A model generated the notes under the pieces. That model saw only the letters and a list, made by a program, of their open reading frames with translations. It was not told the DNA's origin and searched no databases. A stretch of 64,000 nt of DNA, from positions 9,088 to 73,087 of IMG/VR virus record IMGVR_UViG_3300014326_000001; one strand, given 5' to 3'. Position 1 is the stretch's first letter, and every line of letters begins with the position of its first letter. Made by a program: the position numbers and the translations under genes. The DNA is from a virus (lineage: Duplodnaviria; Caudoviricetes). This document shows, piece after piece, positions 2,166-63,505 of this stretch.

Positions 2166-2819
2166 ATGGCACTAGGAAACGGAAAACCAAATTACAAACG
2201 ACACGATGACGACGAATGGATTGATGAGATTCGCCTTGTCACCGTGCCGCGTTACAAAACGTCAGGGATGAGCGGCGACGAGTGGCGGTTCTCTGCCAAG
2301 GTTCAACTCTTGCGAAAAGGGCACATTCTCTTTGAGCGTTCTTTTAGCAAGCTACACTACGCCATAGATTTCCTTCCCGCAATTCAACACGAGTTTGCTG
2401 ATCAGGGACGAGCGGATCGAGACGTGGACGACCGCCCCGTTGACTTTGATCGCTATTGCTTTAATCCCGGATGTCGAGAAGACGGCGTGGTTGAATATCA
2501 GCTAATCGATCAGTTTTCCAGACCCTATGGCGACAAATTGCCAAAGAAGCCGTACCTCGGCGAGTACCGCCGACGATTCTGTGAAGCCCACGCAATGCGC
2601 GGCGACTGTGGCCTTGAGGATGCGGACTCCAACTACACGTTGATTTCCGCGCCGCCGGGATGGAAAGGAAACGCTGATTTAGGCGCAAAGGCGGCTGAGA
2701 GTCCGAGTGCGCAGATGAACGTTGCAATTAACAGCCTTGGCGATTTACCTGCCGCGATTGAGCGGGCACGAAAGGATCACGATGAAAACAAAGGAACGAC
2801 TGACGCAGGCGCTTGCTGA
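2166..2819 (+). CDS. hypothetical protein
   Basis: 217-aa ORF with AAGGTGA RBS. Confidence 0.8.
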   Translation: MALGNGKPNYKRHDDDEWIDEIRLVTVPRYKTSGMSGDEWRFSAKVQLLRKGHILFERSFSKLHYAIDFLPAIQHEFADQGRADRDVDDRPVDFDRYCFNPGCREDGVVEYQLIDQFSRPYGDKLPKKPYLGEYRRRFCEAHAMRGDCGLEDADSNYTLISAPPGWKGNADLGAKAAESPSAQMNVAINSLGDLPAAIERARKDHDENKGTTDAGAC

Positions 2820-3036
2820 ATCTAGCGCACCGGAATGGATGATTAAGAACGCCATCAACGGACAGTACGACGATTTCGAGTCACAACATCCGACGCCGAT
2901 AAGCCTGCTCGTGGCCGATTGCCGCGCCAATGGATTGGACGCCATTGCGGCACGGGCTATTGACGGAGACTTTGATGCAAGCAAAGAAGAGTCTGACGCG
3001 TGGTTTGAAAGCGAAGGCAAGGACCTACTTGCATAG
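2782..3036 (+). CDS. hypothetical protein
   Basis: GAAAGGA RBS before ATG 2782. Confidence 0.75.
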   Translation: MKTKERLTQALAESSAPEWMIKNAINGQYDDFESQHPTPISLLVADCRANGLDAIAARAIDGDFDASKEESDAWFESEGKDLLA

Positions 3037-3039
3037 CCT

Positions 3040-3110
3040 TCAACTTACCAACACGCGAGCCGCAGCGAGCGGTACAGCCGAGCAGGTTAAGTAGTGAGTT
3101 CTGTTCTGCA
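3040..3110. repeat. attC-like palindromic element, copy A (forward)
   Basis: Aligns end to end with copy C (TCAAC.TACCAACAC..GCGA...GGTACA.CC.AGC...AGTA.TGAG); starts just after TAG 3036. Confidence 0.7.
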
Positions 3111-3147
3111 CGTCCCCCAACTGATTTGTTTACCAAGGAGAACGAGT

Positions 3148-3480
3148 GTGAGTGAGCCTCAATTTGACTTTGAGTTTGCCATTACCCCTCGGGTCGCAAA
3201 AAGTGGCAGCGCATGTGGATTGGAAGCTGTTTTTGGATCGCTAACCTACGAGGCGTTGGAGTTCCACGGAAGCGATACTTCGCGCCGCTTTCGCCGACGT
3301 TGGACTGACCGGCAATTTCACGCTGCCATTCAGGACGTTTGGAATCACGGCTATCGCATCGTATCAGTGTTGAAAAACCGCGCACCGGAGCCGGGGACAA
3401 CGCCCGAGTTCCGCATAGAGAATTCCAACCTGTACGAAGGCCACGGGTCAGATATGAAAATCAAGGGGCAACTCCCATGA
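3148..3480 (+). CDS. hypothetical protein
   Basis: AAGGAG RBS, GTG start; 3' end contains a decayed repeat copy. Confidence 0.7.
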   Translation: MSEPQFDFEFAITPRVAKSGSACGLEAVFGSLTYEALEFHGSDTSRRFRRRWTDRQFHAAIQDVWNHGYRIVSVLKNRAPEPGTTPEFRIENSNLYEGHGSDMKIKGQLP

Positions 3481-3992
3481 CTGATCTATCCGTTAGTGAA
3501 GTAGAAGCGATGCTGGCGAAACTGACCGCACAGGGCGTATGGCATCCCTATGATCGAGGCATTGGGTGGGAAGCTCACCGCGAGGCTACCTGTGTCCCTG
3601 AGTGCCTAGAACTCAACATGCAGGACAAGGAAACGTTCAAGCAGGCTGATGCCGAGTTCATCGCCGCCGCCCCTCAGATAGCTAAACAGTACCTTGAGGT
3701 AGTCAAAGAGAACAGCGATCTGCGGCTGGGTGGGCCATGCACCTACAAAACAGTGATCGAGAGCATGGAGATGCTGGAAGCCGCCGGAATGGGTACAGAG
3801 GGCAAACCGAACACGCTTTGGGCTATGACACAGGAGGCTATTGAACAACTCGCCGCCCTCCGCAAAGAAAGAGATCGATTAGTGTCTACGCTGGAAGGTC
3901 GCGCTGAAGAAGAAATGAAAATGCTTGCTGAGGTCGCCGCTGAAAACGACGAATTGCGCGCAGAGCTAGAACGGCTGAAAGGGGAGAAATGA
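3477..3992 (+). CDS. hypothetical protein with C-terminal coiled coil
   Basis: ATGA overlap; ADAEFIAAAP motif common in phage early (Ead/Ea22-like) proteins. Confidence 0.75.
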   Translation: MTDLSVSEVEAMLAKLTAQGVWHPYDRGIGWEAHREATCVPECLELNMQDKETFKQADAEFIAAAPQIAKQYLEVVKENSDLRLGGPCTYKTVIESMEMLEAAGMGTEGKPNTLWAMTQEAIEQLAALRKERDRLVSTLEGRAEEEMKMLAEVAAENDELRAELERLKGEK

Positions 3993-4678
3993 AAACTAAG
4001 AATCCAGAACAGAAGGGTAAGGCTAAAACTGCACCGAGCCTCTCAACAGTTGTGGAGAGCGGCGAAGCGCACGCAGTAGCGGGCTTGGCGGTGTGCCCAT
4101 TCTGCGGAGTCAAAGCAGAGGAATCAGCGCGACCGCATTGGATTCACATCATGCATTTACATGACTGCTTTATCGCGCTTCTCGCCCAGCGGGACATGTA
4201 CATCCCGCGTGACGAATGGTTGGCAGCGTGGAACACCCGAGTAGTAAGTGGTCTTCCAGCGTGGCAACCGATTGGGGCGGGACTACCAAAGGCGGGAGTC
4301 CCTGTACTGGCGTTCTTCCGCTATGCCTCAACGGGCAAAGGTCGCGTGGTTCGCGCCATGTACGCGCCAAGCCTGACTCTCACAGAAGAAGATTGGGGAG
4401 ATTTTCAAAGCGGCGCGGATTACGACGAAGCAACTGACGCGACCTATTGGCCGGAAGGTTGGTACGAAAGGAATGAATACGAAGAAACGAACTGGAGGCT
4501 ATCGGAAGACGTGACGCACTGGATGCCGCTCCCTGCGCACCCGATCACACAAGCTGAGGGTGGGTCTCCATCTCAGGACGTACCCGAATCGCTCGCTCCT
4601 GAAACTGAGTCTGTTTCTTCTGCTGAATCTATGCGTACTGCAGAAGTAAGTCAGGGAGAGGAAACAGAAAATCTTTAG
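3989..4678 (+). CDS. Lar-like (restriction alleviation) Zn-ribbon plus DUF551 mosaic protein
   Basis: CPFCG...AAWNTR and W.PI...LP...VTHWMPLP motifs. Confidence 0.75.
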   Translation: MKTKNPEQKGKAKTAPSLSTVVESGEAHAVAGLAVCPFCGVKAEESARPHWIHIMHLHDCFIALLAQRDMYIPRDEWLAAWNTRVVSGLPAWQPIGAGLPKAGVPVLAFFRYASTGKGRVVRAMYAPSLTLTEEDWGDFQSGADYDEATDATYWPEGWYERNEYEETNWRLSEDVTHWMPLPAHPITQAEGGSPSQDVPESLAPETESVSSAESMRTAEVSQGEETENL

Positions 4679-4743
4679 GTTAATGGGAACCAACTGCACC
4701 ATGGCTTTTAACGGTTGTTATTCTGAAATCATTTTGGAGGTGA

Positions 4744-5121
4744 GTGGTTGTGAAGCTAAATCGCAAGAGCGTGTTCGCAAGGTTCTACCTGTTGGCTGGC
4801 GATGAGTGGAATTTGCCAGAGGACTTTTGCTCCTTCTTTTGGGGGTTAGTTGAACGCGCCCTAAAAGTAATCATCTTTGTTGCGGTATGCCTATTCATTA
4901 TCTGCTTCTTTGTTTACGGGGTTATTCACGTCGTCATGGCGGGATGGAGACACCCGACGATCTCCGCGACCGCCCTAGCGTCTGCATTCGTCATCGCCGG
5001 AGGGTTCTGGCTGGCTTACCGCCGAGGCGTAGCGAGCGCCGCGAGCGACTTACTGAAAATTGTAAACACGAAGATCGACTCAGTCAGAAATCGCTACTGC
5101 CTCCGAATAGAGTGGCACTAG
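4744..5121 (+). CDS. membrane protein (two TM helices)
   Basis: GGAGG RBS; two hydrophobic stretches; start may be GTG 4750. Confidence 0.75.
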   Translation: MVVKLNRKSVFARFYLLAGDEWNLPEDFCSFFWGLVERALKVIIFVAVCLFIICFFVYGVIHVVMAGWRHPTISATALASAFVIAGGFWLAYRRGVASAASDLLKIVNTKIDSVRNRYCLRIEWH

Positions 5122-5123
5122 CG

Positions 5124-5190
5124 TCAACGTACCAACACCGCGAAGCGGGTACAACCTAGCCCGATTCAGTAATGAGGGTTGTGCAGCATT
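5124..5190. repeat. attC-like palindromic element, copy C (forward)
   Basis: TCAAC...CCGCGAAGCGGG...CCTAGCCCGATT...TAATGAGGGTTGTGCAGCATT, just after TAG 5121. Confidence 0.8.
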
Positions 5191-5236
5191 GATCGACGTT
5201 TCAGTTCTTGGATTTATTCTTGAGAGGGAGAAAGAA

Positions 5237-5659
5237 ATGGATAACAAAACTACAGACTTAAAAGGTGATGAGGAACAAAACCCAGCTTCTCCATCTGCTG
5301 AATCACGAGCCACTGGTGCGTTGAGTGCTGCCCTTGACCGCCTTATGGCCGTGTTCAATGAAGCGTCTGACGAGCGATACGAGAACCTAAAAGAATGGGA
5401 GAATCTCGGTCGGCGTTGGCAGAGCGAAGGAGACGGGTACGGCTACAACTTTCATCAAGGAATGGCCGCTGGCGCAAACTGGTGCGATATTTATTACCGC
5501 CGCGTGGGGCGAGAAATAGAAGCGATCCGCAAGGAGTTCACTCAAGCTACAGCGTCACCCGCTTCGGGTGCGCCTCTCTCCAGAGAGGGAGGGCAAGGGC
5601 AATACTGTGAACACCATACTTACCGTTCACTGTGTCCAGCGTGCAGCGGGTTGAGCTAA
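5237..5659 (+). CDS. hypothetical protein flanked internally by repeat copies
   Basis: GAGGGAG RBS before ATG 5237 (frame open from TTG 5189). Confidence 0.75.
   Translation: MDNKTTDLKGDEEQNPASPSAESRATGALSAALDRLMAVFNEASDERYENLKEWENLGRRWQSEGDGYGYNFHQGMAAGANWCDIYYRRVGREIEAIRKEFTQATASPASGAPLSREGGQGQYCEHHTYRSLCPACSGLS
5539..5593. repeat. attC-like element, copy L (in frame inside CDS)
   Basis: CACTCAA...GCGTC-ACCCG CTT CGGGT-GCGCCTCTCTC aligns with copy I at 63278. Confidence 0.75.
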
Positions 5660-5667
5660 GAAACGTG

Positions 5668-5757
5668 ATGACTATTAAAGGCGAATCGTTTGGACGCGGT
5701 GACGTAATCTTCGTTGTGGTTATTTTGATTCTGATCGCGCTCGCCCAAAGATGCTAA
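5668..5757 (+). CDS. 29-aa membrane peptide
   Basis: MTIKGESFGRGDVIFVVVILILIALAQRC read by hand; below ORF-track cutoff. Confidence 0.5.
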   Translation: MTIKGESFGRGDVIFVVVILILIALAQRC

Positions 5758-5760
5758 AGC

Positions 5761-5826
5761 TTCCAACGCACCGGAAGCGGGAAGCGGAGACCTAGCCCGA
5801 TCAAATTGAGAGTATTGTGCAGCATG
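5761..5826. repeat. attC-like element, copy D (forward)
   Basis: CCAACGCACCGGAAGCGGG...CCTAGCCCGATC...TGAG...TTGTGCAGCATG; final ATG starts the next gene. Confidence 0.8.
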
Positions 5827-5961
5827 AATAAGAAACGCCTGATCCCCTTTGTCATCTTCTTACTATTGTTCTACTTCTATTACGTAATGGAACAACCAGT
5901 AGATATTTGTCCAGTAGAGTTAAAATCAGTTGAAGTTAAAGACGATCTGAGCAGGTATTGA
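5824..5961 (+). CDS. 45-aa membrane-anchored peptide
   Basis: MNKKRLIPFVIFLLLFYFYYVMEQPVDICPVELKSVEVKDDLSRY read by hand. Confidence 0.6.
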   Translation: MNKKRLIPFVIFLLLFYFYYVMEQPVDICPVELKSVEVKDDLSRY

Positions 5962-6035
5962 AATGCAGCAAAAAGCTCCTAGCTGCCCCCACCGTTTGAG
6001 AAAGCCCCGCTTCGCGGAGGCAGAAAGTTGAGAGG
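5962..6035. repeat. attC-like element, copy J (inverted)
   Basis: Reverse complement reads CTCTCAAC...CCGCGAAGCGGG...TGCTGCATT, matching copy C. Confidence 0.7.
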
Positions 6036-6037
6036 TT

Positions 6038-6301
6038 ATGAATCTTAGCGTTAAAACATGCGAGCTACTTACAGTGGAGAATGCGCTCACGCAGTCAGAG
6101 CGCGAGGCCATTTCAGGACGACCACAAACCTTAATCGCCGGAGATACAGGGAGCATTTTTATCGGTTGCAAGGGCGACTTGGTAAAGTTCCGCGAGCGCG
6201 TAGGAATAGCAATTTGCATGGTTCGTGCGGCGTGGTTTCTCGTGCTACACGGATTTACTAGCATTTCGTTCACGAAAAAGACAGACGGAAAACTCCAATG
6301 A
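6038..6301 (+). CDS. hypothetical protein
   Basis: GAGAGG RBS supplied by the end of repeat J. Confidence 0.65.
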   Translation: MNLSVKTCELLTVENALTQSEREAISGRPQTLIAGDTGSIFIGCKGDLVKFRERVGIAICMVRAAWFLVLHGFTSISFTKKTDGKLQ

Positions 6302-6549
6302 TTAAACTATCAGACAACGAAATCATTCATGAAAGCCCTACAGCACGAGAAATCGCGCGGGAGGCTGTACGGGTTAGCCGGAGCAGGAAAAAGGCTCTCA
6401 AGGGCATTTACGGCGCAGTACGAGCAGCCACAATCAGAGAATCAACCCGCCCCCGCTACCTTCCGCATGGTGCGTTCCAATTTTGGTGGGAGCAAGATGT
6501 TATCCGTCCTCGCGTTGGCGCTATCGAAGCAAGCCTTTACCCAAAATAA
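6298..6549 (+). CDS. hypothetical protein
   Basis: ATGA overlap, 83 aa. Confidence 0.7.
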   Translation: MIKLSDNEIIHESPTAREIAREAVRVSRSRKKALKGIYGAVRAATIRESTRPRYLPHGAFQFWWEQDVIRPRVGAIEASLYPK

Positions 6550-6554
6550 AGATA

Positions 6555-6583
6555 TTGACAAGCGGTGTTGACGTTGATAGGAT
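6555..6583 (+). promoter_or_regulatory. sigma70-type promoter (probably leaderless)
   Basis: TTGACA-N17-TAGGAT, 8 nt before ATG 6592. Confidence 0.65.
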
Positions 6584-6591
6584 ATAGCGTC

Positions 6592-6768
6592 ATGGAAGAG
6601 AAAACGTTATCACGGCAGAGGCGGTGGGCGATTAAGAACCAAGCCAAAGGCCGTTGTCCTATCTGTGGAAAGAAGTGCGCCCCTGCTTTCAGGTGTAAGA
6701 AACACGCTAAGGCGCAAAAGAAGATTAACCAAGAGTATCGTCAGAAGTTGAAGGAAGGTAAGGGATGA
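6592..6768 (+). CDS. small basic Zn-finger protein
   Basis: CPICG...C..H, K/R-rich. Confidence 0.7.
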   Translation: MEEKTLSRQRRWAIKNQAKGRCPICGKKCAPAFRCKKHAKAQKKINQEYRQKLKEGKG

Positions 6769-6989
6769 ACAACGCGCTATTTAGAATCTGTCTCTTCCTG
6801 AAGTGGGCGACTGCGATGGTCAGCGGCAGTTTGGTGGCGCTCATTGCGGTTCACTTTGGCCGTAACGCTTGCTTCTTGGCAGCTGGCGCGACTCTGAGCG
6901 GACTTCTTGGCGGGGCGTGCTGTGTCTTAAAAGCGGCAATTCACGTCTACGGCGACCCTGAATGGATAAAGAGTCTACGCGAGGAATGA
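6765..6989 (+). CDS. small membrane protein
   Basis: ATGA overlap; two hydrophobic segments. Confidence 0.65.
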   Translation: MNNALFRICLFLKWATAMVSGSLVALIAVHFGRNACFLAAGATLSGLLGGACCVLKAAIHVYGDPEWIKSLREE

Positions 6990-6992
6990 ATC

Positions 6993-7256
6993 GTGGGTGA
7001 ATCAAAATCCATAATCCTTGAAGCAGAAGTTCATTCCTTCCCTGCCGATCCGGTCGATGAGCCAATGTGGGGGTATCCTGATGACGAACAGCGCGAACCT
7101 GCTCCTTGTTGTGTAGAGTGTGATTATTCTGATCTACAAGAATGGGAGTGGGAAATGAAGCAAAGAACTCTCGTTGCGGATCAACTAGAACTCTCCGAGC
7201 CGCCGCTTCGCGGTCGGAGTAACTTGAGTGCCCCCGCGCCTTGGGAGCGTTCATGA
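6993..7256 (+). CDS. hypothetical acidic protein
   Basis: 87-aa ORF; last third is read through repeat copy K. Confidence 0.55.
   Translation: MGESKSIILEAEVHSFPADPVDEPMWGYPDDEQREPAPCCVECDYSDLQEWEWEMKQRTLVADQLELSEPPLRGRSNLSAPAPWERS
7150..7232. repeat. attC-like element, copy K (inverted)
   Basis: GGGAAATGAAGCAAAGAACTCTC is 21/23 identical to the reverse complement of 63334-63356; CCGC TTC GCGG hairpin; ends TTGAGTG. Confidence 0.75.
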
Positions 7257-7588
7257 GCGATTTAATAAATATCGAGAAAGAACTTGTGCGCCTCGGCGGT
7301 GCGCTTGATCTTCTGACCACGGATTTTGAGGGTCTGTGCCGCCGCGCCGCCGATGCTCGCTCCGACTACGATATTGCATGGGCAAAAGCGTTACTCAAAT
7401 CGAACGGTAGCGCAAAAGACATAAGAGAATCCGAAGCCGTGCAAGTTGTCGAAACCGAGATGCGCGAAGCTCGCATAGCCGAAGCAATTAGGGATGCTGC
7501 TAAAGAAAGAATTCGCGCTCTTGAGTCGCTGCTCACTGTTCATCAATCCCGCCTTAAATGGCTTGACGAAGGAAAACGATTTGCATGA
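7253..7588 (+). CDS. helical coiled-coil protein, possibly a recombination mediator
   Basis: All-helical 111 aa, directly upstream of the exonuclease; function inferred from context only. Confidence 0.6.
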   Translation: MSDLINIEKELVRLGGALDLLTTDFEGLCRRAADARSDYDIAWAKALLKSNGSAKDIRESEAVQVVETEMREARIAEAIRDAAKERIRALESLLTVHQSRLKWLDEGKRFA

Positions 7589-8367
7589 GCCTCCCTCGCG
7601 TTGAAGAAATCTTATTTGAACATTTGATCGCGGAACGCGAGACGCGAGAACGTGCGCCTTCTCTGTTGCCGGACACGCTTCACGCCAACGCTTCATCTGC
7701 CGGGGGCTGCGCTCGCGCTGTCGGACTGCGCATGGCAAAGCTGGAAGGCGAACCCGTCAGCGCCGACGCTCTGTTCAACTTCTACATCGGGGACGCAATT
7801 CACGACAAGATTCAAGCGGCCATGCTTGCTAAGATTCCCAAGGCAGAGAAAGAAGTTAACGGAGTTATCGAGGACTTCATCACCTGTCGCGCCGATCTAA
7901 AATATCCTGCTGAAGATTCAAAGAGCGTATGCTGCGAAATCAAGTCCACTTCGGACTTCGGATTCAAACTTGCCACTGGCGCAAAGTTGAAATCTAACGG
8001 TCAATGGAACAAGAAAGACCAAAAGGCAGAAGGGCCAAAACGAGAACATATCCTTCAAGTTGGTATCTCTGCCAAGTCTATTGACGCTGACTATCTAGCG
8101 ATTGTTTACGCTCGGAAAACAGCGGCCAAAGATGAACCAATTATACATGAGTGGCGATTCAAAGTGGAGGATTTTGAGGGCGCAATTCAGGATGAAATTG
8201 CGCGGCTAAAACACATTGTCGAACTAGTGCGCGGGGGGCGCATACCGGATCGAGAATATCAAGGGGGAGTAATTGACAACCCAAAAACAGTTCGCTTCCC
8301 GTGTGGTTATTGTCAGTACTTGAAACCATGTCTGACGTTAGGCGCAGGGGAAGTGGAAATCAAATAA
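7585..8367 (+). CDS. Cas4-like PD-(D/E)XK exonuclease
   Basis: N-terminal C-x-R, G-x-x-I-H, RADL...EIKS nuclease motifs and C-terminal CGYCQYLKPC Fe-S cysteines. Confidence 0.8.
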   Translation: MSLPRVEEILFEHLIAERETRERAPSLLPDTLHANASSAGGCARAVGLRMAKLEGEPVSADALFNFYIGDAIHDKIQAAMLAKIPKAEKEVNGVIEDFITCRADLKYPAEDSKSVCCEIKSTSDFGFKLATGAKLKSNGQWNKKDQKAEGPKREHILQVGISAKSIDADYLAIVYARKTAAKDEPIIHEWRFKVEDFEGAIQDEIARLKHIVELVRGGRIPDREYQGGVIDNPKTVRFPCGYCQYLKPCLTLGAGEVEIK

Positions 8368-10294: not shown

Positions 10295-12060
10295 TGGAAC
10301 TAAATCCATTACAGACACAACTGAAGCAAGAACGCGCCCCGCTTGTGGAAGCCCTTGGCGTTAGGCTCATAAACGGAAAGTCCTGCAAATGCCCGTTTCA
10401 CGATGACAAGCACGCCTCGGGCAGCGTATTTCAAGACCAAGACGGTGGATGGAAGTTTCATTGTCATACATGCGATTGGTCAGCCGACGTGTTTGACGTG
10501 AGAGCGAGAGTCGAGAATAGGCCACTTGGGGATATTCTTGGGGAATACAAACCAGAGAAGCCAAAGCACTACGAAAGCCTTGAAGCGATTATTAGAACTT
10601 ATCCAGATGTTGAAGAAACCTACAAATATACGAATCCGCGAACAGCACGAGTCGAGTTGGCAGTTATTCGCTATCGGATCAACGGAAGAAAAGCCTTTGC
10701 CCAATGCTCCCCCAACGGATCAGGATGGCTTAAAGCCCGACCTGAAGGAAAACTCCCGCTCTACAATCGAAAACGAGTCCAAGAATCCGAAACGGTGATT
10801 GTGGTGGAAGGGGAAAAAGCGGTTCACGCCTTGCATAAGGCCGATATGGTAGCCACTACAAGCCCAATGGGCGCGGGAAAGGCAAGGGAATCTGATTGGT
10901 CAATCCTCTCAGGTAAGAAAGTTTATTTGTGGCCGGATAACGATCCCGTCGATCCGAAAACGCTGAAACAAACGGGCATCGATCACATGAAAGATGTTCA
11001 GGCAATTCTTGAAACGATGAACTGCGAATTGTTCTGGATAGAGCCTTCAAGTCTCGATTTACCACCCAAGGGTGACGCAGTTGATTTCATGGCAAATAAT
11101 GAAGGCTCGCCAGAAGATAAGAAAATGGCTGTGTTGTTGGTCTTAGATGAGGCGCAACCACTAGGAGCGGCACAGGAACTAGGAAAACGTTTGCAGTCAA
11201 TTATTGCAGGGGAATGGGTGAGCTTGGAGTGGCCGTGGCGAATGCTGACTACGCACACACAATCGCTTTTGCCTGATACCGTTACGGCGGTTTGTGGTGA
11301 GCCGGGAGCAGCAAAGTCTTTCTTTTTACTGGAATCGTTTTGGAAGTGGCATTTAGCGGGGCATAAGGTAGCGATATTTGAACTTGAGGATGACCGAACA
11401 TTTCACCTTCACCGAGTCCTTGCGCAGTTGGAATCTAATTCGTCTTTGACCGACGCCGAGTGGGTAAGGACTCACGCAGAACAGGCCACGGCATCATGGA
11501 ACAATCAAAAAGACATTCTTGATTCGCTAGGAAAAGTGATGTGGGACGCGCCAAACTCTCAAATTACGCTTCCCGAACTGGCAGATTGGTTTGAGGCTCG
11601 CTGTCAAGAGGGATTTGAGTTGTGCGTTGTCGATCCGGTTACAGCTACGGTCGCATCTGACAAGCCTTGGATAGACGATCAGAAGTTCATATTCAGAGTG
11701 AAGACCACAGCCAAGAAGTATCACTCAAGGTTGATTTACGCGATTCACCCAAGGGTGGCAAACGGGAAAGTGGGAGCAAGTCTTTCGAGGATGGCGGGGG
11801 GCGCAGCCTACGCGAGATTCTCCCACTCCGTTTTGTGGATTACGAAGTTTGATAAAGAACGCTCAGAGACTATTTGGAGTCCTGATGGTGGCACGCGCCC
11901 AGCCTCATTTGAACGAACGGTAAAAATCAGCAAAGCACGAAACGGAAAAGGCGCGGGCGCTGAATTGGCCTACCACCTAAACACAGGAACGTTATGTTTT
12001 TCAGAATTTGGGGAAGTGTCAGAACATGAAAGCAATAGAAACTCGCTACGCGAGTCATAG
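10294..12060 (+). CDS. primase-helicase fusion (CHC2 Zn finger, TOPRIM, DnaB/RecA-like helicase)
   Basis: CPFHDD...FHCHTC; VIVVEGEK; LWPDND; GEPGAAKS Walker A; VVDPV Walker B; TGATG coupling. Confidence 0.9.
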   Translation: MELNPLQTQLKQERAPLVEALGVRLINGKSCKCPFHDDKHASGSVFQDQDGGWKFHCHTCDWSADVFDVRARVENRPLGDILGEYKPEKPKHYESLEAIIRTYPDVEETYKYTNPRTARVELAVIRYRINGRKAFAQCSPNGSGWLKARPEGKLPLYNRKRVQESETVIVVEGEKAVHALHKADMVATTSPMGAGKARESDWSILSGKKVYLWPDNDPVDPKTLKQTGIDHMKDVQAILETMNCELFWIEPSSLDLPPKGDAVDFMANNEGSPEDKKMAVLLVLDEAQPLGAAQELGKRLQSIIAGEWVSLEWPWRMLTTHTQSLLPDTVTAVCGEPGAAKSFFLLESFWKWHLAGHKVAIFELEDDRTFHLHRVLAQLESNSSLTDAEWVRTHAEQATASWNNQKDILDSLGKVMWDAPNSQITLPELADWFEARCQEGFELCVVDPVTATVASDKPWIDDQKFIFRVKTTAKKYHSRLIYAIHPRVANGKVGASLSRMAGGAAYARFSHSVLWITKFDKERSETIWSPDGGTRPASFERTVKISKARNGKGAGAELAYHLNTGTLCFSEFGEVSEHESNRNSLRES

Positions 12061-12562
12061 ATTTCGTTCACGATTGGAAGCCCGTTACGCAGTTTTCTTT
12101 GACGCGCTTAACGAACCTTGGGAGTACGAGAAAGAGGGATACGTTTTGGAGGACGGAACGCTTTATCTTCCCGATTTCTGGATGCCGAATCTACAGTGTC
12201 ATTTGGAAATCAAAGGCCAACTGCCGACACAAGAAGAATACGACAAGACTCAAGGGTTGGCGCACGGAACAAATAAGGCCGCAGCAATTATCCACGGATT
12301 GCCGGGAGAACAATGGGGCATTCTGTATTGCGTAGACGACACTGACTCGTCGGGAGGTTGGGGAACTTGGCAATTCCGTTTCGGAGTAAACGCAAGCAGC
12401 GAATTAGCGTTCTTGGTAGATCAGTTTGACCCGGAACGGAGGATTCTATATTCCGTCCCTTATGAAAAAATATTGCGCACGAGTTATCGCTGGATGGAAA
12501 CCAACGCGCTGCAACATGCGGCCACGCAAGCCAAAGAAGAACGATTTGAGAGGCGACGATGA
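12026..12562 (+). CDS. PD-(D/E)XK-type endonuclease
   Basis: FRSRLEARYAVFFD...WEYE.EG...YLPDF...LEIKG. Confidence 0.8.
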   Translation: MKAIETRYASHRFRSRLEARYAVFFDALNEPWEYEKEGYVLEDGTLYLPDFWMPNLQCHLEIKGQLPTQEEYDKTQGLAHGTNKAAAIIHGLPGEQWGILYCVDDTDSSGGWGTWQFRFGVNASSELAFLVDQFDPERRILYSVPYEKILRTSYRWMETNALQHAATQAKEERFERRR

Positions 12563-12723
12563 TTGTCTGGTGTTGGGACTGTGAAGAGTTTTGGGAATGC
12601 CCGGAGAACGGCCATGACGGAACAGACCTAATTTGTTACGAGTGCGTAGAGCTACTTAATGCAGGCTACATAATTTGGCGTGACCGCCAACAGGGAATTG
12701 AATGGGAGGGACTGATTGCATGA
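12559..12723 (+). CDS. 54-aa Cys-rich protein
   Basis: CWDC...CYEC; ATGA overlaps at both ends. Confidence 0.6.
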   Translation: MIVWCWDCEEFWECPENGHDGTDLICYECVELLNAGYIIWRDRQQGIEWEGLIA

Positions 12724-12869
12724 AACACCAAAGATACAGTCGCGCCAAAGAAGTCTGCCCCCGGTGCAATAATACAAATTCGGAAATCATAAAAGTTGGG
12801 CAGTATGAATATGCTCGCAAGTGTGATCACTCAACACGGCCAACACTTCCACTGGAGAAAAGTAAATGA
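12720..12869 (+). CDS. 49-aa Zn-ribbon protein
   Basis: CPRC...C.H; ATGA overlaps at both ends. Confidence 0.55.
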   Translation: MKHQRYSRAKEVCPRCNNTNSEIIKVGQYEYARKCDHSTRPTLPLEKSK

Positions 12870-13108
12870 TAATCAACACCGACCCCGACGCATATGTGCC
12901 GATTAGTAATGTAAGAATCTGCCCGTTCCACCTTAAGAACGCTGGCGTGCCTTATGCGGGGTGCACTTGTTCTGCCAGTTACGGACAGCGAAGGGCTACA
13001 GAATCCGAGTATCGAGAGCGACGACGTAAACGCTTGGTAGAAAAACGTGCTTGGCTCTTGGAAGCACTAGCAGAGATTGAAGCTGAACTTCAGGATGTAG
13101 GAAAATGA
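12866..13108 (+). CDS. hypothetical protein
   Basis: Coupled 80-aa ORF with CTC motif and C-terminal helix. Confidence 0.7.
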   Translation: MIINTDPDAYVPISNVRICPFHLKNAGVPYAGCTCSASYGQRRATESEYRERRRKRLVEKRAWLLEALAEIEAELQDVGK

Positions 13109-13608
13109 ATCTCGACGAACACGGTACTATAACAAACGATCAAGGGCGCACGTTTCGCGTGGTTAAGGTAGGCGACGAACTGCGCGTGAACGGGAGGCCG
13201 GATTGGCACGGTGGCGGCATGACGTGGGCGCAGACCACGGTTAAACGTCACCCCAAATACGTTTACGGAACAAAGATGGGAAAGCTGTTGCACGAGATCG
13301 AGAAAGTCAGATTGGTATGGTGGCAGCTTGGCGGTCACGGTAGCTATTTCTTTCGCGTTTCATCACCCCGCGTGTACTTTGAGACAAAATGTGGCTATTG
13401 CTTCTTTGGCTCCGACCCAACGAACACATTTAGGAGCAGTCGCAAGTCAAAGGCTACCGTTTGTGAGCTACCAAAACCGGACGCCGTTCTCTGCGGTCGC
13501 TGCCGTGGTGAAGGCGCGGTCTTTGGAAAACTCGGAAAAGTTGGACGCGGTGGCGTCACCTACAAAGAAGCCCGTGAGCGTATTGGCTGTACGGTGCAAG
13601 TCTCGTAA
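13105..13608 (+). CDS. hypothetical protein
   Basis: ATGA overlap; 167 aa with CxxC motifs. Confidence 0.75.
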   Translation: MNLDEHGTITNDQGRTFRVVKVGDELRVNGRPDWHGGGMTWAQTTVKRHPKYVYGTKMGKLLHEIEKVRLVWWQLGGHGSYFFRVSSPRVYFETKCGYCFFGSDPTNTFRSSRKSKATVCELPKPDAVLCGRCRGEGAVFGKLGKVGRGGVTYKEARERIGCTVQVS

Positions 13609-13677
13609 CCACTCAACGTACGTGAGCGGGACGCGGAGAGCGATCAAGATACGCCCCGCGAGGGTTGTGCAGCATGA
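13609..13677. repeat. attC-like element, copy E (forward)
   Basis: CCACTCAACGTAC...GCGAGGGTTGTGCAGCATGA immediately after TAA 13608. Confidence 0.8.
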
Positions 13678-13692
13678 TCCTGAATTCTTTGA

Positions 13693-13771
13693 AATGAAGA
13701 CAACCCCTCTCATTACAGATCGGGCTAGGAGTCTCCGACCCGCCGAAAACCGGACGGTGAAGGTTGGATGG
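13693..13771. repeat. attC-like element, copy F (inverted)
   Basis: Reverse complement: CCAACCT...CCTAGCCCGATCTGTAATGAGAGGGGTTGT. Confidence 0.8.
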
Positions 13772-13790: not shown

Positions 13791-13820
13791 TTGACAGATG
13801 CTTGCACCCCAAGTTATGCT
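13791..13820 (+). promoter_or_regulatory. sigma70-type promoter
   Basis: TTGACA-N18-TATGCT, 9 nt before ATG 13830. Confidence 0.55.
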
Positions 13821-13829
13821 TGCCTTACT

Positions 13830-14030
13830 ATGAAGAACGTTGAAACAGAAGCGCGGCAGAACGTCGCCAAACTAAAAAAGATTAAAGGCATGGAGAAAAT
13901 CGCCGAGTCGCTTGAGCGGTTAATGGATGGCGCGGCTGCGGGGGGCGCGGCTAGAGCTAAGAAGTTAACCAAGAAACGGCGAGTTGAAATCGCTAAGAAG
14001 GCAGCTAACGCCAGATGGGGGAAGAGGTGA
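13830..14030 (+). CDS. small basic protein (GG-x-ARAKKLT...EIAKKAA.ARW family)
   Basis: Recognisable basic C-terminal motif, likely nucleic-acid binding. Confidence 0.75.
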   Translation: MKNVETEARQNVAKLKKIKGMEKIAESLERLMDGAAAGGAARAKKLTKKRRVEIAKKAANARWGKR

Positions 14031-14649: not shown

Positions 14650-14796
14650 TCGACTTCCGAATCATCGCACTATTACTACTCCCTAGAGTCTGTCCAGTCT
14701 GCGGAGAGCAGGAAAGTAAATGAGGACAAAACCTCGCGGTGCTAACGGGCTGGGCCTAAGAAAGACACGTACCTTGACCGTAACGAAAGGAAGAAA

Positions 14797-16068: not shown

Positions 16069-16236
16069 AGAAACCTGAACCGCAAAAGATTCCAAGAGAA
16101 TGTGATCCAAGTAGGAATCTGCATATTTACTTTGGTAAATCAGAAATCTGTCAATGTAAGAAGGGGAAGAAAAGAGTTGTAAGTTAATACGCTACGATCA
16201 TTCCCAGTTCAGGGTTTCTAAAGACAGGATTGTTGA

Positions 16237-16692
16237 GTGCCTCTGAGTCGAAAACCACGAAAGCCAATGATTCGATCCGCCTTTGTGCGGCACTCGGAAT
16301 TTCGCCCTAAAACGCTTCCCAAGCGGAAAGTGGCTACCGATGGCTTACCGGACGAGAAAAACAGTTCTAGCGCGACTCTGACGCAAAGGAAGCCTATCAG
16401 AAAGGTCGGTCGCAAGGGTTATCAGTGGATAGCCGCCCGTAAGTGGCTCAAGAAGCAATTCAACTGGCTTGGGCTTACTCACTGCATGATGCGTTTTCAG
16501 GGATGCTGGTATGACGACGGGATCGGGTTTGCGCATCCGGCCAAAAGACGAAACTTGAGAGAAGGTGAATTATGGCTCGCGGTGCCCGTGTGCAACGCTT
16601 GCCACTCGCAGCTTGAGATTATGCCTCCCGAAAAGATGCGAGAGCTAGTTGAAACGGCTTGGGCAAAAGCGGGAATAAAGCTACCACAATGA
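16237..16692 (+). CDS. His-Me finger nuclease-like protein (NinG/DUF968-like)
   Basis: C...C...AH..KRR...PVCNACH. Confidence 0.6.
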   Translation: MPLSRKPRKPMIRSAFVRHSEFRPKTLPKRKVATDGLPDEKNSSSATLTQRKPIRKVGRKGYQWIAARKWLKKQFNWLGLTHCMMRFQGCWYDDGIGFAHPAKRRNLREGELWLAVPVCNACHSQLEIMPPEKMRELVETAWAKAGIKLPQ

Positions 16693-21867: not shown

Positions 21868-22314
21868 TTACGTCTGTCGGAACGACTCCACCAAATCGCC
21901 CCCGATCTCAAATCGCACATGGATCAAGGTCAGAATATCCAGTGCGTACTTAACTCGACTGGGATTTGCATCTGTTTCCACTACGTCCTTCAGCATTAAC
22001 TTCAGCTTGGTCAGGTCTTTTTCATTCTGAATCTCGTCCCGTTGGAACTTCTCAAGTAATACATCCAGTTCTTTTGTGTGTGGAGAATGCAAAGCCTGAG
22101 CAGCCGATACGCTCATCCCCTTAAAGTAGATTTCAGCCTTGGTTTCAATTACAGTTAGTCGATTCAGCGCGGTCTCCACCTTGCTCGTTAGCTCTTTGAA
22201 CTTCTCTTTCCAGTCACCTTGGGCGTCCCTGCGGCGTTGATAAACCGCATTGGCAATGGAGACGACTAACGCAAGTAGGCCAACGTAGGGGATTAGCTCT
22301 TTCACTCGATACAC
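21868..22314 (-). CDS. holin-like protein (TM plus coiled coil)
   Basis: N-terminal TM helix, HSPHT..LD.LL motif; GGAGA RBS. Confidence 0.7.
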   Translation of the reverse strand: MYRVKELIPYVGLLALVVSIANAVYQRRRDAQGDWKEKFKELTSKVETALNRLTVIETKAEIYFKGMSVSAAQALHSPHTKELDVLLEKFQRDEIQNEKDLTKLKLMLKDVVETDANPSRVKYALDILTLIHVRFEIGGDLVESFRQT

Positions 22315-22772
22315 GTCTCTCCGGCAGCTTTCGGTTCTTCCTCATGTACCCGCCTGACTGTAGCCTCAATTTGTGTTTGATCTGTGCCAGTATGATAGAG
22401 CAGGTTGACTACTACAGGGAACTCGGTGCCGTCTTTATGTCGCGCTTTCAATGTTCCGCCTGCGCCCATCGGACGATTGACAGGATGGCGAACGTAACCA
22501 GCCCGATGAGCTTGGTGCCTGTGACGTAGGGCGTCAGGGAGCAGCATGTCAATACATTGACCGATTAGTTCAGATGGATGATAACCAAACGTGGCGCAAA
22601 CTTCCTCGTTGACAGCAATGATACGCTCACCATCAGAGATTATCTTCGCGTCGGACGACCGCGCCCACGCTTTAAACAGAAATGAATAGCTAAGGAACGG
22701 ACGAGCGGCAGTTTCCAGCAGCGCGTCAGTCGTTGCACTTTCATCCATTGCGCTATTTTGTTCGTCTGTCAT
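22302..22772 (-). CDS. stand-alone PAS-domain protein
   Basis: IIAVNEEVCATFGYHPSELIGQCIDMLLP...RPMGAG..L.ARHKDGTEFPV.V.L. Confidence 0.9.
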   Translation of the reverse strand: MTDEQNSAMDESATTDALLETAARPFLSYSFLFKAWARSSDAKIISDGERIIAVNEEVCATFGYHPSELIGQCIDMLLPDALRHRHQAHRAGYVRHPVNRPMGAGGTLKARHKDGTEFPVVVNLLYHTGTDQTQIEATVRRVHEEEPKAAGETCIE

Positions 22773-22781
22773 CGTGGATAA

Positions 22782-22853
22782 CCACTCAACCTACCGTGTC
22801 CGTTTCGGCGCTTTCCTAGCCCGACTGGGAACGAAGTTCTTTTCCTCATTTCC
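22782..22853. repeat. attC-like element, copy G
   Basis: CCACTCAACCT...GTTTCGGCG...CCTAGCCCGA; on the - strand ends GTTGAGTGG 9 nt before the PAS ATG. Confidence 0.75.
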
Positions 22854-54022: not shown

Positions 54023-54179
54023 TTTGTTTCTCTAATTCCGCCTCGATCTTGGTTTCTAGTTGAAGCATTGTAAGCGGCAGCGGATTGCCGTTGTCGAATT
54101 CTTTTTGACAAAGCATCCAACGCTGAATCCAATCAGGATTTTCTTCCGCAAATACTTCTAATGCATTTCTCTCGCTCAT
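53973..54179 (-). CDS. hypothetical protein
   Basis: ATGA overlap upstream; 50-nt overlap downstream. Confidence 0.55.
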   Translation of the reverse strand: MSERNALEVFAEENPDWIQRWMLCQKEFDNGNPLPLTMLQLETKIEAELEKQNDKQKTSIRKHLTRTT

Positions 54180-57100
54180 TGGAACACGTACCCCGTTTTC
54201 TCGCGGGACTTCCTTTCTGTTCGTTGCTGTCTCTCTTGTCGTTCAACTCTTGGAAGTGTCCCGCGCTGCATTCCTAACGCCTCAAATCTCTTCCTTACTT
54301 CGTCCTGTTGATCAGGAGGCATGGTATCTATCAGCGCGGATTTCTTCTGAAGCATATCTTTTAATTCTGCTTTCTGTTCAGGGGTAGCCACAGAATAAAC
54401 TATCACTGCTTCTCTTGCTCCGAGTCGGTTGAAATCCTCCTGAAGTCGAGTCTTATTTCTCGCTGCCAGAATTCCTTTAGCTTGACGTTCAGTTATCTTT
54501 GCTCCCATTGCGGCTATGTCTGCTGATACATCTTCACCTTTACGTGAACGGGCGCGTAGCTGAGATTTCTGCCTGTCTGTTTCAATTTGTTCTTCCTCTC
54601 GGCCTTGCCGGGGAGGCATTGATTCTCGGACAAACTTGCGCGACATTTTTTCGGCCAACGTAGTTGGTTTTTCTGCTGCTTCGGGATAACTCCCCGTGCC
54701 AATCCCTACGAACGTTGGAAGAGACTTTAATCCACCTACGATTCCGCCCTGCTTTAATCCTTCATACACGTCCTTAGCAGGTAGCGGGGTAATCAAGTCC
54801 TTGGCTTCCCGTGCGTAACTAAATTTCCTCCCCGCAAAATCTTCTCCCGCAATTCGATCAACAACTGGAGCTACGGCAGGGTTCAGTTTCGAGCGTGCAA
54901 ACTTCTTGGTCATATCAGACAGGCTTTCCCCTGCGTAATAATCCCCCGCCTGCAATCGCTGACTGTTTACCGGACTTAGCCCGCGTGACATGTTGATTAT
55001 GTAGCGTAAGGGTTGTTGAAGTCCCGTGAGTTGATCGTAAACCGTATCCCCGAATCGGATTTTCAGAAACTCGCTGTCGTCAGGGTCGAGACTTACCTTC
55101 CCACCCGCCGCTTTCACTGCTGTAAGTATCGCCGCCGTTGCCCCCAAAAACTTTACGTTGTCTTTAATCATTCTCGCCCGTGCGCCCGCTGGCATTCTCG
55201 CAATCGTCACAGGGTTGATCATGTTGTTGAGCAGTTGGACGCGGCTTGCTAACAATCGCGGAGAGAACATAGCGATATTTAATGCGGGAGCAATCGCATT
55301 CCCTCGACGCCCTAAACTTCCGCGCCCTGTACCCGTGTTAATCAATCGCGCTATCGCTTGTAATTCAGCGGGATTCCTTCGTTGGGCCTCAGTTAGCCCT
55401 TCCAACATTTGCTTGCCCATTGAAAGTCTTTGAGCATCAAGAAACGAGACAAAGGTACGTTCTGAAAATCCAGCAATCTGTTTCGCCACTGGAACGTAGT
55501 CAAGATATTCCTTGCCTAGATAGCCTTCTTCATGGTGACTTAGATGCGGGTCTTGTTTATCAACTCCGGTGAATTCAACTCCTGCCTTTTTCAACGTCTC
55601 GAAATCTTTGTCAGCCTTAATTTTCGCCTCTACGTTGCGCCATCCTAAATCGCTGAACGACTTCACCATTTCCTTGAAAGGTTTTGCTCCTCCTTCAATC
55701 GGATGCGTGATCGCGTAGAATCCACCTTGACGAAAAACCGCTGATATGTCTCCGATAGATTTTAAGGTTTTAGGAATCGATGCCGCCTTTGCCAACTCAT
55801 CGGAAATCATTCCACCACGCCCACGAGTAGCGCGATACTTCATCTTGGCGTATTCAGCCTTAATCTTTTCAACTTCCTTCTGCGCGTTCAAAGTCTCTCG
55901 TGTGTATCTTGGTGCTTCTCGTTTTGCCTTCTCACTGAAATCGCCTTCAACCATTCGGCGTTCAAGTTCTGCTTTCTCTTTTTGGAGCGTCTTTAGTCTG
56001 TTTTGGTTCTTGGTGAATTCTGCCTTCGGGCCTTCTTGTCGTGTTGTTCGTCGCCCCGCCTGAACGTCCTCTTCTTTCAAGAGCCGATTGATTTCAGCAT
56101 TGACTTCAGTGACGCGCTTTTGAGCCTCAGAGCGTTGTTTTGCTGTTCCACCGTACCCAACTAAGGCTTCTGCTACCTGACGCCGTGTAACGCCTAAATC
56201 CTTCACTAGATCATGCGCTTCATCCAGTAACGCTTCAGCTTTTAGTCCGATATTTGCTTTCGCTCGGTTGTGAACGTACTTGATTAACTCTTTCGTCAAT
56301 CGGCCTTCAGGGTCGATTCCCGCAAGACCGCTCGCATGAATGTTTCCAGATTTAATTCGGGCAAGTTCCGCAACGATATTCTGTTTGATGAGTACCGCTT
56401 CTTGGTCAAGACTCGCCTTTGTCTCGGTTCGTTTTCGCTGTCTTCCGACCTTATTCAACGTCGCTTCAAACTCGGCCTTAATTGCACGTTCTTCCGCTGC
56501 GTCTCGTGCCTTCTCGGCCTTTCCAAGTCTCGCGTGAAGGTCTTTCACTTCCGCTAATTGTTGTTCGGTTAACGGAGCGCGTTTGTCTTTCTTTAGCCCT
56601 GCAACCATCTTCACAAGGGAGAAATCTTCCGCTAAAGCTCGTTTTCTTGCCGTGCCCGCTCTTGACCACTCTGCTCCCGCTAAATCATCGGCCTCGGAGA
56701 TTTTGTCGTACTCAGACAGTCTCGCATCGAGTTCTGCTGACTTCTCAGCAATCACTTGTGGGTCTTTCGCTTCGTACAGTTCTCGGTTCAGCCGATCAAT
56801 CTCATTCTTTACTTCCACAGCGCGGAGATTCACTTGCATAGTCTCCACGTTGTTGAAGTTCTTTCCACCTTTCAATGCCTGCTCAATCAGTACATCGGGA
56901 GCACGTGGGTCGGCAGCGTTCTTCTGTTTCGCTTCGGCAAGCACCTCCTCAGATTTAACACGAGGAACTTGTTCCAACTTGGGCAGTCCAAGAGCTTCAC
57001 GATCTGCTTGCATTGAAGCGTCTTTTGGAGAAGTGGTAGAAGGGGCGGCGTCCCCAGCGGAAACCGCCTCCTTGAACGTTTTTGGGTTGACTTTGGGTTC

Positions 57101-62527: not shown

Positions 62528-62665
62528 CCACTCAACCAGATGTTGAATCCTGATGCGAGGCTGAAAAGCCGAGTCCTTATTGACGTTCTTTGGTGGGATA
62601 GAGGCTACGTTCCAGCGCGTTAAGCGGGGATTCAGGCGGCTAAGTTGAGAGGGGTTTGCAGCATT
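62528..62665. repeat. attC-like element, copy H (long form)
   Basis: CCACTCAAC...GAGAGGGGTTTGCAGCATT ends with a multi-stem interior. Confidence 0.6.
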
Positions 62666-62724
62666 TTACTAAGGATTTCTCACTATCCTATGGTAAAATT
62701 CCCGTCTAGTTCTTTGAACGGCCA

Positions 62725-63276: not shown

Positions 63277-63356
63277 CCACTCAACCCTCCGCGTCGAGCG
63301 TTTCGCTCGCGCCTCTCTCAGTAGTCACAGAATGAGGGTTCTGTGCTTCATTTCCC
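63277..63356. repeat. attC-like element, copy I
   Basis: CCACTCAACCCTC...GAGCG TTT CGCTC...AATGAGGGTTCTGTGC; AACCCTC/GAGGGTT inverted repeat. Confidence 0.8.
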
Positions 63357-63505
63357 TCGATTTTCCGCCCAATTAAAGCAACATTCTCTCCCTTTGGTAA
63401 CTCTGTGTGCTCCCCGTAGTCGATGTCCTGTCTCTCCATAATTCGGGCGAGCACATCTGACTCCCGTAATTCGTCAATTCGTTGCTGCTTTTTACTCTTT
63501 TTCAT
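63281..63505 (-). CDS. hypothetical protein
   Basis: 74 aa; C-terminus is read through repeat I. Confidence 0.6.
   Translation of the reverse strand: MKKSKKQQRIDELRESDVLARIMERQDIDYGEHTELPKGENVALIGRKIEGNEAQNPHSVTTERGASETLDAEG

Follow-up and report, generated by a model that had tools for sequence, protein, structure and literature searches.

Phage genomes are mosaic, and to our knowledge the sequences at which their modules are exchanged have been recognised for a few groups only, among them the promoter-early stem-loop (PeSL) elements of T4 and the boundary sequences of lambdoid phages. Repetitive extragenic palindromic (REP) sequences, which also combine into bacterial interspersed mosaic elements (BIMEs), are 35–40 bp long, carry a GTAG head and depend on RAYT proteins, with proposed roles in mRNA stability and recombination; the attC sites of integrons follow the consensus RYYYAAC at R'' and GTTRRRY at R'. 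Among described systems, the closest to the repeats reported here are the PeSL cassettes of T4-type phages (Arbiol et al. 2010, PMC2839356; Comeau et al. 2014, PMC4122927), the start-associated sequences (SAS) of Cluster K mycobacteriophages, 13-bp asymmetric sites lying 3–7 bp upstream of start codons in essentially one orientation, together with their extended form (ESAS; Pope et al. 2011, PMC3203893), and the Rickettsia palindromic elements (RPEs) and other intragenic transposable elements of the miniature inverted-repeat kind (MITEs; reviewed in PMC10969869). Here we describe a family of short repeat elements in a 64,000-nt stretch of DNA (the window), which covers bases 9088–73087 of the 73,087-bp IMG/VR virus contig IMGVR_UViG_3300014326_000001 from an uncultured soil phage. 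These elements contain a co-varying hairpin, mark the limits of homology in two of the open reading frames (ORFs) that they enter, one of them ORF 5237–5659, and stand at mosaic junctions between two related phages. Positions are those of the window unless given as genome positions.

The family is real and comprises at least 13 copies of 65–85 bp each in this genome, in both orientations. The outer end of the element is a conserved (TAA)CCACTCAAC, followed after about 5–10 nt by a short GC hairpin at the centre and often then by CCTAGCCCGA, and the inner end is a conserved GAGGGTT(C)TGTGC(A/T)(G/T)CAT; read outward, both ends present a Shine-Dalgarno (SD)-like TGAG(G/T)G a few bases from an ATG. 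The motif CACTCAAC occurs 13 times in the genome, against about 2 occurrences expected by our estimate. A sequence-only covariance model (CM) built from nine seed copies scores these at 36–48 bits (E 1e-9 to 1e-14) and also finds further partial copies, and an nhmmer profile enlarged with copies from relatives recovers 13 copies in the genome at E≤0.002, 12 of them inside the window. The best match to a reversed-genome decoy had E 0.5–0.7 across the profile searches (0.7 with the enlarged profile), and there are matches outside the seed set far above decoy level. Pairwise identity between copies reaches at most 0.73. The copies are found among small accessory ORFs, in the early arm, near the PAS and lysis genes and in an ORFan stretch at 62.5–63.4 kb, and no profile-supported copy lies in the roughly 40-kb structural module. 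Adjacent ORFs begin in, terminate in or read through the elements; at least one stop-free frame runs through every copy, and most copies are non-coding, while those that code use all three frames.

The central 36-nt segments have a summed minimum free energy of −125.6; random genomic 36-mers reach −62 (z −5.9) and shuffles −89 (z −4.3). Seven copies have one and the same hairpin shape, consisting of 3 bp, a bulged base (T in six copies, A in copy 5124), at least 3 bp and a loop of 3–5 nt. In this set 41 of 42 cells pair, five of the six positions co-vary through several pair types, and none of 5000 shuffles reaches the observed pairing or covariation, a count that has to be read with the caveat that parsing by eye favours structure. 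The hairpins were parsed by hand because RNAalifold, run on a MAFFT alignment in which they are out of register, returned no consensus structure. A search restricted to Watson-Crick pairs for CAA[CG] followed by the bulged hairpin yields 12 sites where 2.4 are expected, including four accepted copies (63282, 13740, 6004 and −2333) and the disputed site at 5543; a loose pattern tolerating GU pairs was discarded as too permissive, with 50 matches where shuffles gave about 30. The bulged T keeps to the strand of the element and not to that of the transcript, and the loop sequences are not conserved. Such a co-varying hairpin implies selection on the folded strand. An initial annotation of the window had drawn attention to two copies, L (at 5539) and I (at 63277), whose hairpins differ by compensated changes, and this description proved accurate: in the window the exact arrangement GCGTC-N13-GCGCCTCTC occurs only at 5552 and 63291, and the stems ACCCG/CGGGT and GAGCG/CGCTC, with identical flanks, differ at three double-compensated pairs. 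This is one case of the pattern seen in the seven copies, so that the stem compensation also holds in the larger set.

The relation between elements and protein-coding sequence is clearest in two ORFs. ORF 5237–5659 (plus strand, 140 aa) has a strong SD sequence, GGGAG, before its ATG at 5237 and no better internal start. It is laid out as an element-coded N-terminal leader, a conserved core (5321–5536, residues about 29–100 in the alignment of homologues) and a C-terminal tail that opens with a forward half-copy; it matches no Pfam or PHROG family, and Protein Atlas gave no lead on the function of the core. Seven homologues on other phage contigs share only residues about 29–100, that is, the part between the two copies; all invariant columns past the start Met fall within L33–R92, and the N- and C-terminal parts are unrelated among the homologues. 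The inverted copy at 5264–5329 (minus strand; residues 10–31; CM 7.9 bits) aligns over its full length to profiles from which it was excluded (nhmmer E 0.011 and 0.013; 0.0017 with relatives added), and its outer end, GTTGAGTG, abuts the core; positions 5308–5331 in this region form a 24-nt, 92% match to genome 5766–5789, in the N-terminal region of another early ORF, genome ORF 5707–6132. The half-copy at 5539–5580 (plus strand, 5' half; in frame from residue 101; CM 8.1 bits, E 0.26) consists of the outer end CACTCAAG and a bulged-T hairpin at 5552–5573. It is identical to copy 63277 (63278–63319) at 31 of 42 positions (blastn E 0.086), and its score with the profile hidden Markov model, 4.8 bits, is not significant, with the identical hairpin shape adding some support. 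The bracketing of the core by complementary copies, as proposed in the initial annotation, is thus borne out on the N-terminal side, and on the C-terminal side by a weaker, 5'-half match. The reading frame stays open from the core to 5657, so that expression of the gene would necessarily bring with it translation of the C-terminal copy. The idea of another inverted half-copy (about 5590–5655), making up a full palindromic unit with GGGTTGAGC as its end ahead of the stop, found no support from any model and was rejected. In another phage, with a 47%-identical homologue (P0006; L005:6290–6440), the core is again followed by CCACTCAGAAC, read T-Q as here, and the ORF ends just past GCGTTGAAAGC, a likely inverted outer end with no profile support; to judge by these sequences, the element-derived tail may predate the split of the two phages.

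The second ORF, 63281–63505 (minus strand, 74 aa), joins a conserved domain at residues 2–48 to an element-coded tail, in which residues 51–74 are the minus-strand reading of copy 63277. Against 37 homologues, the best-scoring stretch comes to an end at query residue 43–63 (43–52 in most) and often extends to the C-terminus of the homologue itself. The expectation that homology would stop at the element ends is therefore upheld in both element-containing ORFs that have homologues. Homologue searches with ORF 6993–7256, whose 3' end overlaps copy 7153–7230, and with genome ORF 5707–6132, which lies outside the window and whose N-terminus is an inverted copy (E 0.009), returned only these ORFs themselves. 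The 47-residue domain of ORF 63281–63505, with an invariant G-H-L-P-G-V pattern, is itself widespread as the C-terminal end of longer proteins and occurs five times in one 1338-aa protein. In-frame elements are thus present in ORF 5237 (at both ends), ORF 6993, ORF 63281, genome ORF 5707–6132 and two proteins of relatives (P0048 and P0049, below). The similar peptides GDEEQNP (ORF 5237, residues 10–16) and GNEAQNP (ORF 63281, residues 51–57), which had been singled out as linkers, are both there; however, the 7153 copy, the genome 5707 ORF and the leader in one relative (L057) between them read the common stretch GCAAAGAAC in all three frames, so the likeness of the peptides is one of DNA and not of a protein module, and the element-coded parts are short low-complexity tails rather than linkers between domains.

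The family recurs in at least four other metagenomic phage contigs (Ga0397208_000002, L058/L059, L056 and L005), of which L058 and L059 were retrieved through a 19-mer common to three copies. In contrast, relatives by large terminase (TerL) at 42–66% identity (G001–G005) have no copies at E≤1; thus, the family is narrower than the TerL clade. Pattern scans of IMG/VR (CACTCAAC...CCTAGCCCGA and a second pattern, whose matches were judged by eye) gave only scattered matches, as they did in 185,579 representative bacterial and archaeal genomes of GTDB, where 24 loci rescored with the element model gave nothing and no copies were found with the pattern used. There was no match to the elements in Rfam and, in a DNA search with window 3000–8000, none among 50,697 deposited phages (INPHARED). 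On a 75.7-kb JGI contig (L055 and L057) the family occupies at least ten places. This contig encodes the homologue of ORF 63281 that reaches furthest into the tail (P0013, 60% identical), and in L055 this gene end is occupied by an element, as it is by copy 63277 here. The L055 ORF takes its stop from the TAG of a CCTAG motif, whereas ORF 63281 in the present phage continues to the TGA of GGTTGAGTGG; the gene end has hence drifted inside a positionally conserved element. Few genes, flanking genes included, are common to the two genomes, and several copies have their closest relative in the other genome (0.66–0.73 identity) as against 0.55–0.69 within this one.

Mosaic junctions could be traced in one pair of relatives, L057 and L058, which are 94–99% identical in their shared blocks. 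The element at L057 15194–15251 is an isolated 83% island, both flanks of which are unrelated between the two. A further element, at about 14719–14790 of L057, lies at an ORF start and encodes a 23-residue leader, identical at 20 of 23 residues, that is followed by unrelated proteins (P0048 and P0049), the breakpoint falling inside the hairpin of the element. In L058 the C-terminus of this protein lies, moreover, in the following forward element, which gives the order inverted copy, body, forward copy found in ORF 5237–5659. From these alignments the association of elements with breakpoints is suggestive, not yet statistical. L057 also carries, at 11721–12833 on the minus strand, a 370-aa IS605-type TnpB (OrfB_IS605 and Cas12f1-like TNB domains), which sits antisense between early genes and is separated from them by hardly any spacer; the flanks of this gene bear no resemblance to the elements.

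The other copies are distributed as follows. Intergenic plus-strand copies lie at 3038–3112 (between ORFs 2722–3036 and 3148–3480; CM 35.8 bits), at 5124–5190 (between the stop of ORF 4750–5121 and the start of ORF 5237; 48.5 bits, E 6e-14) and at 5761–5826 (46.6 bits), where the terminal CATG of the element gives the ATG of a 45-aa membrane ORF (5824–5961). Directly after this ORF comes the minus-strand copy 5961–6035 (42.1 bits), with a bulged-T hairpin and with an outer end, GTTGAGAGG, that is the SD-like sequence 4 nt before ATG 6038. The minus-strand copy 7153–7230 (44.5 bits) corresponds to codons about 54–80 of ORF 6993–7256 in a different frame (EMKQRTL..., by eye). Copy 13609–13676 (plus strand; 37.3 bits) directly follows the TAA of ORF 13105–13608 and is separated by 15 nt from its partner at 13692–13771 (minus strand; 40.3 bits), after which a sigma70-like promoter (TTGACA...TATGCT) can be read in the sequence; 5124/5264, 5761/5961 and 13609/13692 form three tail-to-tail pairs. 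The intergenic copy 14715–14784 (minus strand) is found only with relatives in the profile (nhmmer E 1.8e-7; partial CM match E 0.008), 22782–22851 (plus strand; 45.3 bits) is upstream of and antiparallel to the minus-strand PAS-domain ORF 22302–22772, and 62597–62669 (plus strand; nhmmer E 1e-6; CM E 2e-4) lies in an ORF-poor stretch, in which the CCACTCAAC motif found at 62528 could be part of a longer variant. Copy I (63277–63353, plus strand; 36.6 bits) codes on its minus strand for residues about 51–74 and the TGA stop of ORF 63281–63505. Three gene ends had been named in the initial annotation as carrying elements; those of ORFs 6993 and 63281 do so, while that of ORF 3148 gave no match. 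Nor did the weaker copies placed at 3986–4090 and 4547–4570 produce a profile or CM match even at permissive thresholds, this Lar/DUF551 region having a motif-level likeness only (a minus-strand bulged-T hairpin at 4059–4087, by eye part of a degenerate copy, and TCACNCAAGCT at about 4545).

Further repeats adjoin the scored family. A divergent subfamily with the motifs CTGTCTTTWGWAACCCTGAAC and CCTAGACGCT-TTTTGCTTCAT occurs at genome 7905–7965 (window about −1180 to −1120), at window 16150–16239 (minus strand), at L057:5410–5470 and at L059:230–310; it is common to several genomes (49 nt at 88%) yet was missed by the profiles, and the family is therefore larger than the 13 scored copies. In the direction of the transcript, several antiparallel copies show first an SD-like GGAAATG and then an 18–26-codon mini-ORF inside the element (window 22772–22851, minus strand; 5961–6038, plus strand; L055:10175–10240 and 10675–10735), with its stop in GTTGAG or overlapping the ATG of the next gene (in the case of the PAS gene, as ATGA); such mini-ORFs could encode leader peptides or be open by chance.

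The genome is organised into a plus-strand arm with small early genes, including ORF 5237–5659, and replication genes (a primase/helicase, a replication protein O-like and a clamp-like protein), and a long minus-strand arm with the large terminase and the structural genes. A 136-aa RNase H/RVT_3-like protein is encoded at the point where the two transcription arms diverge (genome 3251–3661, minus strand; L054). The minus strand at 54176–60004 encodes a 1942-aa protein that by eye has an N-terminus like a peptidase M15-type cell-wall hydrolase and a ParB-like middle stretch, and which is probably an ejected or internal virion protein. The 80-bp 'direct terminal repeat' of the contig (window 63921–64000 and genome 1–80) consists wholly of a 24-nt tandem repeat within a minus-strand ORF coding for repeated AAIKRYVD; it thus reflects a circular assembly through the repeat and not true physical ends, with the repeat number uncertain. 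Good sigma70-like promoters outside the elements are seen at 6555–6583 (TTGACA-17-TAGGAT) and at about 13800–13830 (TTGACAGAT...TATGCT), and the recurrence of TTGACAGAT at several places suggests that these may be early and middle promoters for the host polymerase, separate from the repeat family.

Taken together, the reading that we favour, at about even confidence, is that the elements are PeSL-like boundary or recombination cassettes, tolerant of translation and specific to one lineage, a group of uncultured soil phages. The elements would form conserved patches between otherwise unrelated, fast-changing accessory genes, at which co-infecting relatives may exchange gene bodies, with the elements as probable crossover points and recombination as the presumed cause. 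They probably also supply intercistronic expression signals, namely a ribosome-binding site and, if they act at the RNA level, a hairpin. The units exchanged would be whole small gene bodies and not domains of multi-domain proteins. The initial annotation had seen in the elements a device for shuffling protein domains; the swaps of coding bodies at elements in L057/L058 agree with an exchange, though of small genes rather than domains. It had further offered this as an explanation of lambdoid mosaicism, on which the elements have no bearing, the phage not being lambdoid.

Several points weigh against boundary cassettes. No recombination event was directly observed, and the conserved islands could be functional signals that have outlasted the turnover of their flanks. 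In L057/L058 one breakpoint lies mid-element, and several others lie away from any element. Copies within the genome are only 55–70% identical and would offer little homology for homologous recombination. Folded as a whole, most elements do no better than shuffles, only copy 63277 doing so clearly (z −3.5 and −4.2), and the half-copy at 5539 is a statistically weak member of the family. As no promoter or intrinsic terminator was detected in the elements, the PeSL analogy is incomplete, and all the data are metagenomic.

The alternative that survives best, although we consider it unlikely, is that the elements are purely regulatory intercistronic RNA elements, either a processing or stability hairpin coupled to a ribosome-binding site or an operator for a phage RNA-binding protein; they would then be conserved for this function, and the mosaicism next to them would be a matter of the faster turnover of everything else. 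In its favour, copies are placed exactly between stop and start codons, and in most of them the SD-like TGAG(G/T)G can be read 4–11 nt ahead of the next ATG. The co-variation of the hairpin with its conserved bulged base and the retention of an element at one gene end across phages whose proteins are 60% identical fit the same explanation, as does the analogy with the SAS/ESAS of Cluster K mycobacteriophages (PMC3203893). However, the elements stand in both orientations relative to transcription, so that mRNAs would carry two different sequences, and the bulged T follows the element and not the transcript strand. The variable loops, the lack of an Rfam match and the different gene contexts in which the closest copies between genomes are found also speak against it.

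Selfish elements of the MITE, REP or PATE (palindrome-associated transposable element) type, moved in trans by a single-strand transposase of the host or of an insertion sequence (IS) and inserting at gene ends, sometimes in frame like RPEs, are a rather more doubtful alternative. The copies, imperfect palindromes, are conserved at one end and have their bulged-T hairpin in a subterminal position, their tail-to-tail pairs resemble BIMEs, and related subfamilies occupy non-orthologous places in two genomes; in-frame insertion has its parallel in the RPEs (PMC10969869), and the TnpB of the relative demonstrates that IS605-type transposons enter the lineage. Against this, near-identical copies are lacking, inspection of the flanks by eye showed no target-site duplication, and no conserved reading frame is found such as RPEs have. 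The phage has no RAYT, and no Y1 (HUH) transposase (PF01797) was detected in the 73-kb genome, control genomes being positive and a host-encoded enzyme possible. The representative bacterial and archaeal genomes gave no copies with the pattern used, and the flanks of the relative's TnpB are unlike the elements.

A still fainter prospect is that the elements are structured single-strand recombination sites, composed of a conserved AAC-containing end, a co-varying hairpin and an extrahelical T, at which some enzyme, of the phage or its host, would cut gene bodies and rejoin them in frame. If so, the phage lineage would practise an integron-like swapping of coding cassettes, including fusions to an element-encoded leader. 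Its strict form, in which attC-like folded sites serve a dedicated site-specific recombinase that excises and inserts gene bodies, we regard as very improbable. An outer end ACTCAAC that fits R'' in five of ten copies by our count, a GTT conserved near the other end, a size of 65–85 bp with a variable centre and an extrahelical T, and pairing of the outer-end CAAC+4 with 4+GTT in some copies (63277, 3040) speak for it; but the phage has no tyrosine recombinase, R' is found in no copy, orientations are mixed with no array, and the single base-resolved breakpoint lies inside the hairpin and not at GTT. Finally, the resemblance might be fortuitous, or might come from common paralogous protein leaders without any element at the DNA level; this is effectively refuted for the family as a whole and is possible only for the 5539 half-copy. 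Taken by itself, the match of that half-copy to 63277 lacks genome-wide significance (blastn E 0.086; about 0.2 by our binomial estimate when all pairs are counted), and short GC hairpins are common in DNA of 55% GC. Most copies, however, are non-coding and the coding ones use three frames, profile scores reach E 1e-9 to 1e-14 with no decoy better than E 0.5, and the family recurs in independent contigs.

The family provides a compact, recognisable boundary element in an unrelated and uncultured lineage, kept across phages whose proteins have diverged to 35–70% identity, and cases are on record of unrelated proteins that begin with one and the same element-coded peptide. If exchange does take place at the elements, they would constitute a defined system for the capture of new accessory genes that are at once given translation signals, and would help to explain ORFan termini of odd composition. 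Even if interpreted with the greatest caution, the family shows that in the annotation of such genomes a drift of start and stop codons inside repeats should be expected.

In function, the best-supported comparison, drawn by analogy, places the elements closest to PeSLs, with features of SAS/ESAS and of in-frame MITEs such as RPEs. Like PeSLs, they are short repeated stem-loop cassettes in regions rich in small non-essential ORFans and, here in L057/L058 only, are found at insertion, deletion and replacement junctions between close relatives. PeSLs, however, carry a strong sigma70-like early promoter, whereas a promoter consensus scan of 2800–7400 found promoter-like sites only at 6555 and 5087 (minus strand) and none in an element, other promoter types being possible. 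The PeSL stem-loop is a terminator; here a GC hairpin is present and co-varies, no U-tract terminator was detected, no T-run follows the hairpin and no intrinsic-terminator-like site coincides with an element. The present elements are also unrelated in sequence, occur in both orientations and are read in frame as protein termini.

With SAS/ESAS they have in common a lineage-specific repeat in the non-structural part of the genome, a position few bases from start codons, an SD-like core and inverted repeats; they differ in sequence, in their 65–85 bp, in standing in both orientations, in overlapping coding sequence and in a co-varying hairpin, the ESAS arms being without compensatory changes. 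RPEs, of about 100 bp, are likewise palindromic repeats that lie in frame inside ORFs and add a peptide without destroying the protein, but their peptide is conserved, read in one frame and placed within unrelated bacterial metabolic genes, whereas here the frames vary and the copies lie at ORF termini in a phage genome. The hallmarks of MITEs are not apparent, in that end complementarity is only partial, no duplication is seen in the flanks by eye and the highest identity is 0.73. REPs and BIMEs are similar as imperfect intergenic palindromes in both orientations and in inverted pairs, but the present elements have neither a GTAG head nor a RAYT, and no host copies were found in the representative genomes with the pattern used; that they contain IS608-like TTAC/TCAA cleavage motifs is speculation. 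The attC sites resemble them in size range, in a variable centre, in having AAC/GTT towards the ends and an extrahelical base, and in lying at the borders of cassettes, and differ in the R'' fit of five in ten copies and an R' fit of none (GTTGTGC or GTTCTKY instead; our counts on the element alignment), there being here no integrase (tyrosine recombinases of PF00589 are absent from the phage), no array and no single orientation. The elements are set apart from PeSLs, SAS/ESAS and RPEs by their sequence, by having no detected promoter or terminator, by their co-varying bulged hairpin and by their frequent overlap with coding sequence.

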